From Escherichia phage vB_EcoM_RZ, in the sequence record MW598459: 64,000 nucleotides of DNA; one strand, given 5' to 3'. Every line of letters begins with the position of its first letter. Within the stretch, counting starts at the first letter, position 1. Made by a program: the position numbers and the translations under genes. Positions 1,769 to 14,628 of this stretch are shown piece after piece. The notes below the pieces were generated by a model. That model saw only the letters and a list, made by a program, of their open reading frames with translations. It searched no databases and was not told the DNA's origin.

Positions 1769-2433
1769 TGAAAACATTAACGAATAAAAAGGCTGGAGTA
1801 ATTTCCCGCCTTGCTAGTTACTTAGAATTTCAAAATACATCAAAAAATATTACGGCTGTCATGGGTCAACGAGCAATCGGCGGCCCATCCGCAACACAAA
1901 CAACCGAGGGTATTTTTTATCCAACAGTTCAGAGCGCAATAGATGATATTGCGTTTCGATATGAGCTTCCGGTTGGCAGTGTAATTACTAATACGAATAA
2001 CCTTTCTCCTGCGGCAATTAGTCAGTCGGATAAAATTAAATTCACCGGGTCTATTTCTGGTGCTGGGGTTGGTGATACTGTTTTATTTTTCATTTTTGGT
2101 ATTCCAGTTGAGGTTATTGTCGGGGATTCGGCTGTATTAGTTGCTTCCAAGGTTAACGATGCTTTGCTGACGGCTGTTGCTGATAGTTTAATTGTGTCAA
2201 GCTCTGCAATTGATAGCGTGGACCAGTCTATATTAAATATTACATATAACGACTACCAAAACCATAATTTTGCACCTTTCACTCAATATGGTTGTACGCT
2301 TAGCCAGACTATTACACAGCAACCGCGCGGTGGGTATGGTTCATGGGAATATCTTGGAACTTCAACCCAGACATTATCAGGTGGCACAGCAAATGGCGCA
2401 ATTTCACTTTACCATTATAAGCGAGTATCGTAA
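1768..2433 (+). CDS. 11: baseplate wedge/short-fibre attachment protein gp11
   Basis: 221 aa (T4 gp11 about 219 aa); stop/start overlap with flanking genes; synteny 10-11-12. Confidence 0.75.
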   Translation: MKTLTNKKAGVISRLASYLEFQNTSKNITAVMGQRAIGGPSATQTTEGIFYPTVQSAIDDIAFRYELPVGSVITNTNNLSPAAISQSDKIKFTGSISGAGVGDTVLFFIFGIPVEVIVGDSAVLVASKVNDALLTAVADSLIVSSSAIDSVDQSILNITYNDYQNHNFAPFTQYGCTLSQTITQQPRGGYGSWEYLGTSTQTLSGGTANGAISLYHYKRVS

Positions 2434-3983
2434 TGACAACGACTAACACGCTAAAACACATTAGCGATAAATCCGAATATAAAACATTCGACCCGACGGG
2501 AACAGCTTTCCCGTCGACTGTTACCAACGTACAAGAGGCTTTAGGGTCTCTTAATAAAATTGCGTTAGATGGATATATCCCAGCCTCTTCCGAAACGACC
2601 GCAGGGCTCATCAGGCTAGCCACCACACAAGAAGTTATTGATGGTATTAGTCCAGACTCTGCAGTTACTCCAGCGACCTTAAAAGCTCGTTTAGACATCC
2701 CTACGCAAGCCACAGAAACTTATGTAGGTATTACCCGTTATGCAACCAATGCTGAAGCAATTGCCGGAACAGTAACCGATGCGGCTATTGTTCCATCTTC
2801 ATTAAAAGCAACAATTGATGATGTTTTTGCTGTTCGTGTCGGTACCGAAAATAATTTGGGTGTTCTTCGTATTAGTACCGAGGATGCAGCTTTAGCTGGT
2901 ACAGATGATACAACCGCTATGTCTCCGTTGAAAGTTGCTCTGGCAATTGGCAAAGCAACAGCAGCGCTTCCGACTTATTCAACTGCCACACAAACTGTTT
3001 CTGGTTTAGTACGAATTGCTACAAATGCTGAAGTGCAAGCAGGAACCCTGGGTGACGGTGTGGCAATTTCTCCAGCAGGTTTAAATGCTCGTACAGCAAC
3101 ACAAGACCGCGCTGGGATTATTCGTCTTGGTACTCAGTCAGAGATTAATAACAGTGTTGATGGTGTTGCGGTAACCGGAGCAACTCTTAATGACCGTGGC
3201 GCTACAACCGATATTCGCGGTGTTGTTAGATTAACTAATCAGGCAGGGGTTGCTCCCGGGGGTGACGGTGCTGGTGCCTTGGCTTGGAACGCTGATGTAA
3301 TTAACACTCGCGGTGGTCAACGAATTAATGGAAGTCTTTCTTTAGATTATATTTCCACCGGCAATTTTGATTCCAATACAGCTCATATGGGCGGTCAATT
3401 ACTTTCTACACAGCGTTATGCTTCTGAACGGGTTCCTGTCGGAACGGTGATGATGTTCGCAGGTGATAGTGCTCCTCCTGGCTGGATTATGTGTCATGGT
3501 GGCACCGTTAATGGTGACCAATTCCCTGACTATCGAAATACTGTTGGGACTCGTTTTGGTGGTGATTGGAATAACCCTGGCGTTCCTGATATGCGCGGCT
3601 TATTCGTTCGTGGCGCAGGTACGGGCGGTCATATTCTGAATAACCGTGGTCAAGATGGTTATGGTAAAGACCGTTTGGGTGTTGGTTGTGATGGAATGCA
3701 TGTTGGCGGTGTTCAGGCACAACAAATGTCATACCATAAACACGCTGGTGGCTGGGGTGAATATCAACGCAATGAAGCTCCATTTGGTGCGTCAGTTTAT
3801 CAGGGTTATCTTGGTACCAGAAAATATGCAGACTGGGACAATGCCTCGTATTTCACAAATGACGGATTTGAATTAGGTGGTGGTCGTGATTCTCTCGGAA
3901 CGTTAAACCGTGAAGGCCTTATCGGATATGAAACAAGACCTTGGAATATGTCTTTAAACTATATTATTAAAGTTCACTATTAA
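2433..3983 (+). CDS. 12: short tail fibre protein gp12
   Basis: 516 aa, Ala/Thr/Gly-rich repetitive fibre-like N-terminal two-thirds; position between 11 and wac; T4 gp12 about 527 aa. Confidence 0.75.
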   Translation: MTTTNTLKHISDKSEYKTFDPTGTAFPSTVTNVQEALGSLNKIALDGYIPASSETTAGLIRLATTQEVIDGISPDSAVTPATLKARLDIPTQATETYVGITRYATNAEAIAGTVTDAAIVPSSLKATIDDVFAVRVGTENNLGVLRISTEDAALAGTDDTTAMSPLKVALAIGKATAALPTYSTATQTVSGLVRIATNAEVQAGTLGDGVAISPAGLNARTATQDRAGIIRLGTQSEINNSVDGVAVTGATLNDRGATTDIRGVVRLTNQAGVAPGGDGAGALAWNADVINTRGGQRINGSLSLDYISTGNFDSNTAHMGGQLLSTQRYASERVPVGTVMMFAGDSAPPGWIMCHGGTVNGDQFPDYRNTVGTRFGGDWNNPGVPDMRGLFVRGAGTGGHILNNRGQDGYGKDRLGVGCDGMHVGGVQAQQMSYHKHAGGWGEYQRNEAPFGASVYQGYLGTRKYADWDNASYFTNDGFELGGGRDSLGTLNREGLIGYETRPWNMSLNYIIKVHY

Positions 3984-8952: not shown

Positions 8953-11259
<2,307 letters not shown>

Positions 11260-11288: not shown

Positions 11289-13268
11289 ATGGCTTTATTA
11301 TCTCCGGGCATTGAGCTCAAAGAAACAACGGTCCAAAGCACTGTTGTTCGTAACGCGACGGGTCGTGCGGCGCTGGTTGGTAAATTCCAGTGGGGCCCAG
11401 CTTTCCAGGTAACTCAGATTACAAACGAAGTTGAACTTGTTGATTTGTTTGGTGGTCCGAATAATGAAACAGCAGATTACTTTATGAGTGGGATGAACTT
11501 CCTGCAATATGGTAATGACCTCCGTACTGTACGTGTTGTTAACCGTGACGAAGCTAAAAACGCATCCCCGATTGCTGGCAATATTGAAACTACCATTGTA
11601 ACTGCTGGTACAAACTATGCTGTCGGTGATGTTATTCAGGTTAAACACAACCAGACTGTTGTTGAACCAGCTGGCCGTGTGACCAAGGTCGATGTTGATG
11701 GTAAAATTCTGGCAATCTTTATTCCTACCAATAAGATTATTGCATTTGCTAAAACTATTAATCAGTATCCTAATTTGGGCAGTGCATGGACTGCAGAAGT
11801 TACGACCACTTCTTCCGGTGTATCTGGTACCATCACTGTCGGGAAAATTGTTACCGATTCTGGCATTCTGTTGACTGAAGCAGAAAACAGTGAAGAAGCA
11901 ATTACTTCTCTGGAATTCCAGGCATCATTGGCAAAATATGCAATGCCGGGTGTTGTTGCTCTTTATCCTGGTGAAATTGGTTCGACTCTTGAAGTTGAAA
12001 TCGTATCCAAAGCTGAATTTGAAAAAGGCGCAACTGCAAATCTGGATATTTTCCCCGGTGGTGGTTCCCGCGCTTCTATAGCTCGTGCAGTGTTTAACTA
12101 TGGTCCTCAGACCGAAAACCAATATGCAATTATCGTTCGCCGCGATGGTGCAATCGTCGAAAACGTTGTTTTGTCTACTAAGCAGGGCGAAAAAGATGTT
12201 TATGGTAATAACATTTACCTGGATGACTACTTTGCAAAAGGTACTTCCAACTACATCTATGCAACATCTCGCAACTGGCCTGTAGGCTTCAGTGGTATCA
12301 TCAATCTGTCTGGTGGTATTTCTGCAAACGATAAGATTACCGCTGGTGATTTGATGCAAGGTTGGGACCTGTTCGCTGACCGTGAAGCTCTGCATATCAA
12401 CCTGCTTATCGCTGGTGCTTGTGCTGGTGAAGGTGATGCGACCGCTTCCACTGTTCAGAAGCACGTAGTTTCTATTGCTGACGAACGTCAGGATTGCTTG
12501 GCATTCATTTCCCCGCCGAAAGGTCTGTTGGTTAACGTTCCTCTGACCCGTGCAGTGGATAACCTGATTGACTGGCGTACAGGTGCTGGTGCATTTGATA
12601 CTGATAACATGAATATCAGCACGACTTATGCAGCGATTGATGGCAACTATAAATATCAGTATGATAAATATAACGACGTTAACCGTTGGGTTCCTCTGGC
12701 AGCTGATATGGCTGGACTGTGTGCTCGTACTGATGATGTTTCTCAGCCTTGGATGTCTCCGGCAGGTTATAATCGTGGTCAGATTCTGAACGTTCTGAAA
12801 TTGGCTGTTGAACCACGTCAGACCCAACGTGACCGCATGTATCAGGAAGCTATCAACCCGGTTGTTGGTTTCGCAGGTGGTGATGGTTTTGTTCTGTATG
12901 GTGATAAGACTGCAACTAAAGTTCCATCTCCGATGGACCATATCAACGTTCGCCGTCTTACGAATATGCTGAAGAAAAATATCGGTGACGCATCCAAATA
13001 TAAACTGTTTGAGCTTAACGATAACTTCACTCGTGCATCATTCCGTATGGAAACTTCTCAATACTTGGATGGTATTCGTGCGCTCGGTGGCATTTATGAA
13101 GGTCGTGTGGTTTGTGATACTACTAACAACACCCCGGCGGTTATTGACCGAAATGAGTTTGTTGCTAGCATTTATTATAAACCTGCCCGCAGTATTAACT
13201 ATATACAGCTTAATTTCGTTGCCACTAGCACTGGTGCTGATTTCGATGAGCTGATTGGGCCACAATAA
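11289..13268 (+). CDS. 18: tail sheath protein gp18
   Basis: 659 aa, same length as T4 gp18; strong SD GAGGA; synteny 17-18-19. Confidence 0.9.
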   Translation: MALLSPGIELKETTVQSTVVRNATGRAALVGKFQWGPAFQVTQITNEVELVDLFGGPNNETADYFMSGMNFLQYGNDLRTVRVVNRDEAKNASPIAGNIETTIVTAGTNYAVGDVIQVKHNQTVVEPAGRVTKVDVDGKILAIFIPTNKIIAFAKTINQYPNLGSAWTAEVTTTSSGVSGTITVGKIVTDSGILLTEAENSEEAITSLEFQASLAKYAMPGVVALYPGEIGSTLEVEIVSKAEFEKGATANLDIFPGGGSRASIARAVFNYGPQTENQYAIIVRRDGAIVENVVLSTKQGEKDVYGNNIYLDDYFAKGTSNYIYATSRNWPVGFSGIINLSGGISANDKITAGDLMQGWDLFADREALHINLLIAGACAGEGDATASTVQKHVVSIADERQDCLAFISPPKGLLVNVPLTRAVDNLIDWRTGAGAFDTDNMNISTTYAAIDGNYKYQYDKYNDVNRWVPLAADMAGLCARTDDVSQPWMSPAGYNRGQILNVLKLAVEPRQTQRDRMYQEAINPVVGFAGGDGFVLYGDKTATKVPSPMDHINVRRLTNMLKKNIGDASKYKLFELNDNFTRASFRMETSQYLDGIRALGGIYEGRVVCDTTNNTPAVIDRNEFVASIYYKPARSINYIQLNFVATSTGADFDELIGPQ

Positions 13269-13300
13269 GACTTTACTTCTGATTTAACTTGGGTTATAAT

Positions 13301-13323
13301 GCGCGTATAATATAAATACGCGC
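13301..13323. promoter_or_regulatory. palindrome GCGCGTAT-AATATAA-ATACGCGC containing a late-promoter TATAAATA (13311-13318)
   Basis: 8-bp perfect inverted arms; TATAAATA 18 nt upstream of the HNH ORF. Confidence 0.5.
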
Positions 13324-13335
13324 AAGGATTTACAA

Positions 13336-13941
13336 GTGATTATTTCTAAATTTGTTGAAGTTAAAATACGAAATCATGCAAAATGGTGGAGTGAATACTT
13401 AGGTAAAACTCTAACATACCATGATGTAATTTCTGTTCCAGTTGAACAAATGCCAGATAATAGTAATAAAAAGATTGAGTGTTCCTGTGATGAATGTGGG
13501 GTACATTTTGAGCGCGGCATTCAGCTGCTTCGTCGTGTTGATAAACATTTATGTAAAGCATGTTCAAGAAAAGATATTGGACAAAAGAATGTTATTGCGC
13601 AAGGTGGTGTACCAAGACCATGGCAACGCGGTGAAAAACATCATAGCTGGAAGGGTAATAAGCGCGAATTCTATTTGTATGCTCAACGCGTTCATGCATT
13701 GACAAGAGCAAAACATCTAAAGAATATTTGGTCAACATGGGAAAATGCAGATAAGATAGGAAAATGTGGAGAAGATGGTGCATATCAACTTGACCACAAA
13801 GTTTCTATTGCATATGGATTTTATAATCACATACCAGAGACTGTTATCGCTTCGCTCAACAATTTAGAAATAGTCACTTGGGAATCTAATAGGTCCAAAG
13901 GAAAATCAAATAGTATTGACTTATGGGATATATTATCCTGA
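13336..13941 (+). CDS. HNH-family homing endonuclease-like protein
   Basis: C-terminal QLDHKVSIAYGFYNHIPETVIASLNNLEIVTWESNRSKG fits an HNH/HNN motif; CxxC...CxxC zinc-finger-like pairs; GTG start after AAGGA; T4 has no gene between 18 and 19 as far as I recall. Confidence 0.6.
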   Translation: MIISKFVEVKIRNHAKWWSEYLGKTLTYHDVISVPVEQMPDNSNKKIECSCDECGVHFERGIQLLRRVDKHLCKACSRKDIGQKNVIAQGGVPRPWQRGEKHHSWKGNKREFYLYAQRVHALTRAKHLKNIWSTWENADKIGKCGEDGAYQLDHKVSIAYGFYNHIPETVIASLNNLEIVTWESNRSKGKSNSIDLWDILS

Positions 13942-13965
13942 CAGTAAATGTAATTAAGCAGTAAA

Positions 13966-14018
13966 CCGTAGAACCATTATACAATGCTATAAATAAAAGC
14001 ATATCATCGGTTCTACGG
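13966..14018. repeat. 10-bp perfect inverted repeat (CCGTAGAACC / GGTTCTACGG) enclosing TATAAATA
   Basis: arms at 13966-13975 and 14009-14018; loop carries TATAAATA (13988-13995) and, on the other strand, TATAAT. Confidence 0.6.
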
Positions 14019-14076
14019 ACTCCTCAGAGCTCCTCCAGCGACCTAAATACATTTATTGATGAATCATATTACCTAG

Positions 14077-14084
14077 TATAAATA
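14077..14084 (+). promoter_or_regulatory. late promoter (TATAAATA) for gene 19
   Basis: exact TATAAATA about 50 nt upstream of gene 19 ATG. Confidence 0.55.
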
Positions 14085-14136
14085 CATGCATCAGGGACGC
14101 GTTCGCGCGACCTGTGTCTATAAAGAGGATTCCTTA

Positions 14137-14628
14137 ATGGAGTTGACCGATATCACACGCGCTTTCGAATCCGGCGACTTTGCTCGCCCTAACCTGTTCG
14201 AAGTCGAAATCCCATTCCTGGGTAAAAACTTTGCTTTCCATTGTAAAGCAGCCCCGATGCCTGCTGGCATTGTAGAAAAAGTTCCTGTTGGTTACATGAA
14301 CCGTAAAATCAACGTTGCGGGCGACCGTACATTTGATGACTGGACTATTACGATTTATAACGACGATGCTCATAAAGTTCGTCAAGCAATTGTTGATTGG
14401 CAAAATCTGTGTCACGGTATGACTAACGAAATCACCGGTGCAGCTCCTGCTGATTATAAGAAAACCGCTACTGTCCGCCAGTTCCATCGTGATGGCAAGA
14501 CCGTTACGAAAGAAGTTGTTATTACCGGCATGTGGCCAACCAACGTTGGGGAAGTCCAGATGGATTGGGACTCCAATAACGAAATTGAAACGTTCGAAGC
14601 GACGTTCGCAATTGACTGGTGGGAATAA
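14137..14628 (+). CDS. 19: tail tube protein gp19
   Basis: MELTDITRAFESGDFARPNLFEVEIPFLG matches remembered T4 gp19 N-terminus; 163 aa; start moved to the internal ATG after SD AAGAGGA. Confidence 0.9.
   Translation: MELTDITRAFESGDFARPNLFEVEIPFLGKNFAFHCKAAPMPAGIVEKVPVGYMNRKINVAGDRTFDDWTITIYNDDAHKVRQAIVDWQNLCHGMTNEITGAAPADYKKTATVRQFHRDGKTVTKEVVITGMWPTNVGEVQMDWDSNNEIETFEATFAIDWWE

Follow-up and report, generated by a model that had tools for sequence, protein, structure and literature searches.

A probable free-standing HNH homing endonuclease gene in the sheath/tube spacer of T4-like phages

Close relatives among the T4-like phages differ in whether a small gene stands between those for the tail sheath and the tail tube, which raises the question of what this gene is and how it came to be there. 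We examined it in a 64,000-nucleotide stretch of Escherichia phage vB_EcoM_RZ (sequence record MW598459; the whole stretch is called the window here). As an initial annotation made from the letters alone had noticed, a 201-amino-acid (aa) open reading frame (ORF) with a GTG start lies at the 18/19 junction, at 13336–13941 on the + strand. The gene order is gp17 (terminase), gp18 (sheath, 11289–13268), the 201-aa ORF, gp19 (tube) and gp20 (portal), with the ATG of gp19 at 14137, matching the VR7 and DK-13 annotation. The window region is 99.1% identical to Escherichia phage DK-13 and 95.1% identical to VR7, and its sequence groups the window with the VR7/DK-13-like Gaprivervirus phages (T4-like Straboviridae). 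The ORF is equivalent to gp19.1 of VR7 and T6 (phrog_5104), and the VR7, DK-13 and T6 records already list it as 'gp19.1 hypothetical protein'. We found no paper describing gp19.1, a name that matched only unrelated SPP1 papers. The T6 count of Petrov et al. includes a single 'other HNH' gene, possibly but not necessarily gp19.1 (PMC2993671). Our analysis suggests that gp19.1, the family of phrog_5104, probably represents a free-standing gene for a homing endonuclease of the H-N-N type of HNH enzymes, specialised for the sheath/tube spacer of T4-like phages.

Consistent with the mobile insertion proposed by the initial annotation, the ORF lies in a cassette with sharp boundaries that most close relatives lack. 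When the window and VR7 were aligned with the cassette-free phages MN01 and SP18, a comparison that the initial annotation had suggested, the left edge of the cassette fell directly after the gp18 stop, where CAATAA is followed by GACTTTAC in one case and by TTATCATC in the other. The right edge fell within the last codons of the ORF, in which ATATTATCCTGA is homologous to the spacer sequence TTATCATCGC; at the junction, the cassette-free allele continues from CAATAA into TTATCATCGC. The inserted cassette proper thus spans 13269–13926 (+ strand, about 660 bp, 658–664). The ORF interrupts no other ORF; the gp18 stop (13268) precedes it and the native 18/19 spacer follows. Far from being kept in all relatives, the cassette is present in only 5 of 30 Gaprivervirus records (DK-13, TH57, VR7 in two records, and DCP80), and the other 25 do without it. 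A similar pattern was found in two other genera. In Tequatrovirus, T4 and T2 have TACGGTGC and then ATTCTAAAGG after the TAA, whereas T6 and RB3 have ~640 nt between the TAA and ATTCTAAAGG, and the insert is missing from most of about 650 matching records. In Dhakavirus, UP19 and PSD9 have the cassette but fDHCT2 does not.

The gp18 3' flank of the window is 95.7% identical to that of cassette-free MN01 but only 91.0% identical to that of cassette-bearing VR7, and the gp18 3' end is a recombination mosaic, with flanks that do not track cassette presence. Within the last 100 nt of gp18 (13169–13268), two synonymous-codon haplotypes occur, both of them in both cassette states and with no consistent pattern; the window and VR7 differ at 24 positions there. 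In Dhakavirus, the 9-nt gp18 end TTAGT(T/A)TAA is found at both ends of the cassette (UP19, locus L011, 1128–1136 and ~1822–1830), and the corresponding gp18 end of fDHCT2 is at ~1064–1072 (locus L099). This 9-nt repeat could be a footprint of the original insertion.

The gene family is large and is held at one locus. A tblastn search at E <= 1e-3 found 239 places in 238 phage records, one place per genome, and an exhaustive profile search at E <= 1e-3 returned 3,887 cluster representatives (clustering at 50% identity), or 769 at E <= 1e-10. Apart from a few distant matches with other domains, these representatives carry no precomputed Pfam domain. In the annotated loci that we checked (T6, RB3, Klebsiella KP185, Acinetobacter Acj61, Sinorhizobium phiM7 and Vibrio VmeM-32), the gene has the sheath gene on one side and the next tail gene, gp19 in Straboviridae, on the other. 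Across 80 loci from IMG/VR, nearly all full-length matches were flanked by gp18 upstream and gp19 downstream, and this placement held at gp18 identities down to about 34%; in the remaining loci, the locus ends early or gp19 was undetected.

Two members occupy the same spacer in another way. On an environmental T4-like contig (L047), a full-length member at 2390–2980 (+) lies between gp19 (1719–2261, −) and gp18 (3028–3933, −), and this copy occupies the 18/19 spacer on the strand opposite to the tail genes. In VR26 (L003, 1676–2359), a 227-aa relative with 36% identity is located immediately ahead of gene 19, 3 nt separating its stop from the ATG, and replaces the promoter and leader of gene 19. 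The octamer TATAAATA, a late-promoter motif, lies inside the VR26 coding sequence (L003, 2011–2018), like the promoters embedded in T4 seg and mob genes. The VR26 copy is a third variant with another insertion point within the same spacer. Patchy presence, one target locus, and alternative orientations and insertion points together form the signature of a one-site homing endonuclease lineage. Two further records are irregular. In Vibrio phage vB_VmeM-32 (L010, 1687–2695), the annotated 274-aa ORF stops before the HNH motif, and an HNH-like segment continues in another frame (tblastn match at 2501–2695); either this copy is frameshifted and decaying or the record contains a sequencing error. 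MG010123.1, a 32-kb record named 'Staphylococcus phage SAJK-IND', contains at 9098–9709 a copy with a score identical to that of the Tequatrovirus coliphage copies, and the record is probably chimeric or contaminated.

What does the gene encode? The protein has an N-terminal module with a predicted zinc ribbon, followed by a C-terminal HNH (H-N-N) nuclease domain. The initial annotation had remarked on Cys pairs and an HNN motif in the translation, and both proved to be invariant across the family alignments. The Cys pairs would form a four-Cys zinc ribbon or treble clef (13486–13563, + strand; C51-x2-C54 ... C73-x2-C76), in which C51, C54, C73 and C76 are invariant among 26 full-length relatives. 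Weak matches were obtained to Zn_ribbon_8 and to mS66 in the PDB (E = 6e-4). The Pfam match to DUF4379 was weak for the window protein (13.2 bits versus a cut-off of 24.5), and 8 of the 26 members matched this domain at E <= 1. The HNH beta-beta-alpha-metal domain (13768–13905, + strand) contains D153-H154 (13792–13797), N176 (13861–13863) and N185 (13888–13890). Across 39 diverse C-terminal domains, these are the only invariant polar residues, with L-D153-H154 as the motif, so the catalytic residues of an HNH enzyme are in place on alignment. In an AlphaFold2 model (pLDDT 82.4), D-H ends the strand 150–154, N176 precedes the strand 177–181 and N185 is on the helix 182–188; in this model, the three elements sit on a beta-beta-alpha-metal unit.

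Database searches, another check that the initial annotation had suggested, gave HNH matches for some of the relatives but not for the window protein itself. The window protein had no HNH match in Pfam or NCBIfam (E <= 1) or among PDB sequences, and its PHROG, phrog_5104 (E = 1.7e-76), is annotated 'unknown function'. The C-terminal domains of its relatives matched the HNH families PF01844 (4 of 39, best E 3.7e-5) and HNH_4 (5 of 39) in Pfam, as well as HNH entries in PHROGs, with phrog_6050 matched by 8 members (best E 6.5e-7) and phrog_144 at a best E of 3.2e-6. A profile of the full-length family matched only zinc-finger proteins in the PDB, and a Foldseek search of the whole model against the PDB returned nothing significant. 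The C-terminal profile gave leucine-rich-repeat matches in the PDB to an 'IGxLxNLQxL' stretch, which we dismissed as compositional.

The C-terminal domains of ten relatives also matched PHROG 'endonuclease VII' entries weakly, raising the possibility of a DHHRN/endonuclease VII family enzyme, which we ruled out on motif grounds. F-CphI and T4 endonuclease VII belong to the same beta-beta-alpha-metal superfamily, and F-CphI is itself a free-standing homing endonuclease in a T4-like phage; the hallmarks of the DHHRN family are DHDH, which includes a second catalytic His, flanking CX2-4C and CX2C zinc ligands, a conserved Arg and the lack of a central Asn (PMC6083498). By contrast, the gp19.1 motif is LDHKVS (D-H-K-V rather than DHDH), the central Asn (N176) is present, and no CX2-4C/CX2C pair flanks the motif, there being zero Cys in residues 145–201. 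D-H-K-V, a central Asn and the lack of flanking Cys together assign gp19.1 to the classical H-N-N type and not to the DHHRN/endonuclease VII family, and the DHHRN-family member of VR7 is a separate gene (gp6). The gene is also under purifying selection: relative to VR7, the ORF has 22 synonymous and 4 nonsynonymous differences (dN/dS 0.04). By motif and modelled fold, the protein is a predicted HNH nuclease.

To understand how the cassette fits into the expression of its neighbours, we separated the signals that it carries from those that were there before. The motif TATAAATA occurs 19 times in the window versus 4.1 +/- 1.95 times in shuffled sequences, with none of 100 shuffles reaching 19, and in the first 29 kb, 14 of 15 copies are on the + strand, the coding strand of the late genes. 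This excess and strand bias indicate that, as a class, these are real late-promoter motifs. The initial annotation had placed three copies around the cassette, one in a palindrome upstream, one within a perfect 10-bp inverted repeat downstream and a third ahead of gene 19, and all three are there.

The two downstream copies are native. The coding region is followed by an extended stem-loop of ~125 nt (13933–14062, + strand), with the stop of the HNH ORF in its basal 5' strand. Its tip (13966–14018, + strand) is formed by the 10-bp perfect repeat CCGTAGAACC (13966–13975) and GGTTCTACGG (14009–14018), which encloses a native late promoter, TATAAATA at 13988–13995, and an inner ATGCT/AGCAT hairpin. 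Both 10-bp arms are identical in the cassette-free phages MN01, SP18, TH54, P479 and VR25. In a comparison with the counterparts in L002 (1470–1602), L004 and L100–L102, the stem-loop had fold z-scores of −4.6 in the window and −5.05 and −6.4 in cassette-free alleles, and none of 200 shuffles folded as well. In the alignment fold, four pairs had compensatory changes; in the basal helix, such changes separate the two allele classes and also occur within the cassette-free group. Thus, the downstream palindrome, which the initial annotation had considered as a possible endonuclease target or recombination scar, instead caps a native stem-loop, which compensatory changes have maintained in both alleles. 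The stem-loop could serve as a stabiliser of mRNA 3' ends, as a terminator or as promoter context. Nearer to gene 19, the late promoter TATAAATA at 14077–14084 (+ strand) is identical in cassette-free relatives, and a native leader hairpin (14092–14114, + strand; CAGG..CGCG-UUCG-CGCG..CCUG) is invariant in the alignment with cassette-free genomes. The start signals of gp19 follow, with the Shine–Dalgarno sequence GAGGA at 14125–14129 and the ATG at 14137 (+ strand). T4 and T2 have an analogous native hairpin and late promoter, occurring twice, which are identical in both Tequatrovirus allele classes. The initial annotation had suggested that the cassette brought or recruited late promoters that preserve gene 19 expression. 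Only the upstream copy of the motif is carried by the cassette, and only in the VR7/DK-13 lineage; the cassette neither brought nor recruited the two downstream copies. It was inserted ahead of the native late promoters, and this is why gene 19 is still expressed.

One part of the downstream flank is inherited together with the cassette. From 13945 to 14140, the window is >=98% identical to all five cassette-bearing records but only 84.5–86.5% identical to all 25 cassette-free records. The difference is concentrated in an allele-specific patch (14019–14047, + strand) in the 3' strand region of the extended stem, which is completely linked to the cassette because it pairs and co-varies with the stem strand right after the ORF stop. 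The inherited unit therefore extends from 13269 to about 14047–14062. Most likely, the patch arose when the cassette was co-converted together with the stem-loop version of a donor. We also considered the patch as an immunity polymorphism that protects the target, an explanation that is not needed for a 3' strand of a native stem; T6 and T4 show no such patch.

The upstream palindrome, unlike the downstream one, belongs to the cassette. It forms a 9-bp hairpin (13300–13324, + strand) of TGCGCGTAT (13300–13308), AATATAA and ATACGCGCA (13316–13324), which abuts the Shine–Dalgarno sequence. The latter, AAGGA at 13324–13328, is separated by a 7-nt spacer from the GTG at 13336–13338, as read directly from the sequence (13324–13338, + strand), and the GTG start is kept in all enterobacterial-phage copies of the gene. 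In the minimum-free-energy fold, an outer helix (+ strand) pairs ACUUG at 13287–13291 with CAAGU at 13333–13337, which includes the GU of the GUG start. The outer helix of UP19 and PSD9 is CUUUA/UAAAG in the same register, amounting to three double (compensatory) changes. The hairpin stem is identical in the Dhakavirus copies, whereas the loop is ACACA in Dhakavirus and AATATAA, GATATAA or GTTAATAA in Gaprivervirus. The late-promoter motif TATAAATA (13311–13318, + strand) lies across the hairpin loop and 3' arm; at this position, it is found only in the window/DK-13 and VR7/TH57, with AATAAATA in DCP80 and no counterpart in UP19 and PSD9. Because the palindrome is internal to the cassette, and the stem alone is conserved in Dhakavirus copies that lack TATAAATA, it does not appear to be the target or scar that the initial annotation had envisaged. 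Nothing that we found marks either palindrome as an endonuclease target.

The leader also contains a candidate promoter that the initial annotation did not mention. This sigma-70 (T4-early-like) candidate (13272–13300, + strand) reads TTTACT-17 nt-TATAAT, scores 10 of 12 and has a predicted start near 13307 (+ strand), within the 5' arm of the hairpin. Hexamers with the same spacing are found in DCP80 (TTTACA-17-TATAAT) and in UP19 and PSD9 (TTTACT-17-TATAAT), and PSD9 has TGgTATAAT; from these sequences, we infer that TTTACT-17-TATAAT acts as a promoter. Transcripts from the late promoter would start near 13324, and their leader is predicted to lack either inhibitory 5' strand. Hairpins non-homologous to this one are found in the same position in KP185, where the predicted fold pairs the Shine–Dalgarno sequence and the start codon, and in Acj61, where the hairpin contains TATAAATA. 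In more distant relatives, the ORF abuts the gp18 stop or overlaps it by a few bases, an arrangement that suggests translational coupling. Scanning IMG/VR for the GCGCGTAT hairpin pattern turned up one contig only, and blastn with the leader yielded 11 phage records, too few for a statistical covariation test.

Taken together, these features fit the following scheme for a homing endonuclease gene. In a mixed infection, the protein would recognise the 18/19 junction of a related phage lacking the cassette and would nick or cut it, with recognition by the N-terminal zinc-ribbon module and cleavage by the C-terminal HNH domain. Recombinational repair off the cassette-bearing genome would then copy the cassette together with about 120 bp of the downstream flank, and the carrier genome would be immune because the insertion splits the site. 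One speculative candidate for the recognition element, suggested by sequence conservation, is the gp18 3' end TTTGATGAGYTGATTGG together with the junction; TTTGATGAGYTGATTGG is located 12–27 bp away from the point of insertion, and Gaprivervirus, Dhakavirus, Jiaodavirus and Acinetobacter phages all conserve it. As for expression, the cassette would rely on signals of its own and keep its output tightly limited. The abundant read-through RNA from gene 18 would fold the GC-rich hairpin and the outer helix, and the nuclease would be poorly translated from it. Transcripts from the cassette's own promoters, which would start within the hairpin at about 13307 or, just past it, at about 13324, would be translatable from the weak GTG. 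In the lineage of the window, the late promoter inside the hairpin would give transcripts that start at the Shine–Dalgarno sequence, free of that structure.

This logic has precedents. Control by a late promoter within a hairpin has been described for I-TevI, I-TevII, I-TevIII, segB and Aeh1 mobE (PMC2988022), and the hairpin and late promoter of the gp19.1 cassette match it by analogy. T4 mobA–E and Aeh1 mobE are likewise HNH ORFs between conserved phage genes and sporadic among close relatives, and their expression, too, is held back by RNA structure, a hairpin at the ribosome-binding site that has a promoter inside or adjacent (PMC2988022). The T4 Mob family has no detectable sequence similarity to gp19.1, which forms a separate PHROG (phrog_5104) and has one tblastn place in T6, a phage with three mob-like genes (PMC2993671 Table 5). 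The nuclease of gp19.1, whose activity is predicted, differs from the Mob proteins in following an N-terminal zinc-ribbon module, and the gp19.1 cassette comes with a sigma-70-like promoter, something that several mob and seg genes lack. The segD-like gene seg43(25) of Aeromonas phage 25 also has, right before the ribosome-binding site, a very stable hairpin that does not sequester that site (PMC2988022); it encodes a GIY-YIG enzyme at another locus, and gp19.1 has an additional outer helix that pairs with the start codon. In its catalytic core, gp19.1 resembles I-HmuI, Gme HNH 4h9d, GVE2 HNH 5h0o and T5 SciA, which also have the beta-beta-alpha-metal core and His-Asn-Asn with no active-site cysteines, although I-HmuI is intron-encoded and gp19.1 is free-standing.

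Several observations weigh against a homing endonuclease or against parts of the scheme. Cleavage and homing by family members are predictions from sequences and a model. Between genera, the nuclease domain is 70–81% identical, a divergence similar to that of gp18 and gp19, which would also be expected if the gene had long been inherited vertically and repeatedly lost; a difference of about 4% between the cassettes of the window and VR7 gives no hint of very recent transfer. Residues 102–105 (13639–13650) are H-H-S-W in the window and VR7, where the family has GxxHPRW with a nearly invariant Pro-Arg. With respect to expression, the leader fold has a z-score of only −1.7 and leaves the Shine–Dalgarno sequence unpaired, the compensatory evidence for the outer helix comes from two lineages only, and gene 18 is itself a late gene, so that the early-versus-late logic of the I-TevI hairpin is not directly transferable.

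In one explanation without homing, gp19.1 is a domesticated or competition nuclease, an essentially vertical accessory gene kept for its benefit to the phage, for instance in excluding the markers of co-infecting phages or degrading competitor DNA. Strong purifying selection (dN/dS 0.04), one locus held across very divergent phages, a C-terminal domain that tracks the phage genus and a large family whose members are mostly intact at 190–210 aa are all to be expected of such a gene. However, it is missing in 25 of 30 close relatives as well as in T4 and T2, so any benefit must be dispensable, and the antisense copy and alternative insertion points indicate repeated insertion. Furthermore, marker exclusion and homing are two read-outs of one cleavage event in T-even phages (PMC2988022). 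On balance, we consider this explanation unlikely.

Less likely still is that gp19.1 is an ancestral, non-mobile resident of T4-like phages that is being lost, so that cassette-free genomes would be deletion derivatives. That many Straboviridae genera and Sinorhizobium phiM7 have it at the same position, and that its divergence between genera is comparable to that of the flanking genes, is consistent with ancestral residence. But the empty sites in three genera have clean, functional spacers, and the 8 nt TACGGTGC of T4 is not in T6. Mosaic flanks that are incongruent with cassette presence, the opposite-strand copy, the placement in VR26 and N-terminal modules exchanged between genera also argue against simple loss.

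T4-type gp17 carries its own packaging nuclease. This counts against the terminase-accessory version of a last explanation, a non-catalytic DNA-binding regulator of late tail genes or an HNH factor like HK97 gp74, which we regard as highly improbable: the zinc ribbon, the late-gene setting, a position two genes downstream of terminase gp17 and the precedent of I-TevI, which also represses its own late promoter (PMC2988022), speak for it, but the H-N-N triad of catalytic residues is invariant, most relatives dispense with the gene and sequence comparison found no operator-like copy of the junction around the cassette promoters.

A homing endonuclease gene thus remains the preferred reading, and its N-terminal module adds a further aspect. 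The N-terminal ~125 aa (13350–13731 in the window) exist in a short form (S), found in the window, VR7, UP19 (L011) and T6 (L005, 2520–2876), and a long form (L), found in DCP80 (L012), PSD9 (L013), RB3 (L006) and KP185. Each form is common to three genera, Gaprivervirus, Dhakavirus and Tequatrovirus, with 51–63% identity, whereas S and L are only 37–41% identical inside one genus. By contrast, the HNH third is genus-specific, with 87–96% identity within a genus, and so are the flanks. The nucleotide breakpoints are sharp, one of them just past the first few codons and the other at about residue 130, and the recognition module looks exchangeable within the cassette. The first ~21 nt of the ORF (13336–13356; GTGATTATTTCTAA(A/G)TTTGTT) are nearly identical across genera, including the copies in L005, L006, L007 and L011, unlike the remainder of the module, which diverges. 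These nucleotides may be a 5' homology arm for module exchange or a constrained translation-initiation region. That the family is an ancient one-locus lineage with an exchangeable DNA-recognition module, going beyond a routine homing endonuclease gene, is doubtful but worth stating. If it is true, endonuclease alleles would compete for the sheath/tube spacer or replace one another there, with homology arms provided by the conserved first codons and the HNH-coding region, and the family may be retained for phage-versus-phage competition besides its own spread.

Free-standing HNH homing endonuclease genes are well known in T4-like phages, and gp19.1 leaves the current understanding of phage mobile elements unchanged; its family was previously only a hypothetical protein. 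Our results separate the native parts of the junction, the stem-loop and two late promoters, from the parts that the cassette carries, and they point to natural pairs for homing tests, namely DK-13 or VR7 versus SP18 or MN01, and T6 versus T4. If our reading is correct, a widespread 'hypothetical protein' (238 phage records and, at 50% identity, about 3,900 cluster representatives) gains a functional label, and a mobile gene specialised for one spacer would explain the recurrent length polymorphism of the 18/19 junction in T4-like phages, including therapeutic coliphage candidates.

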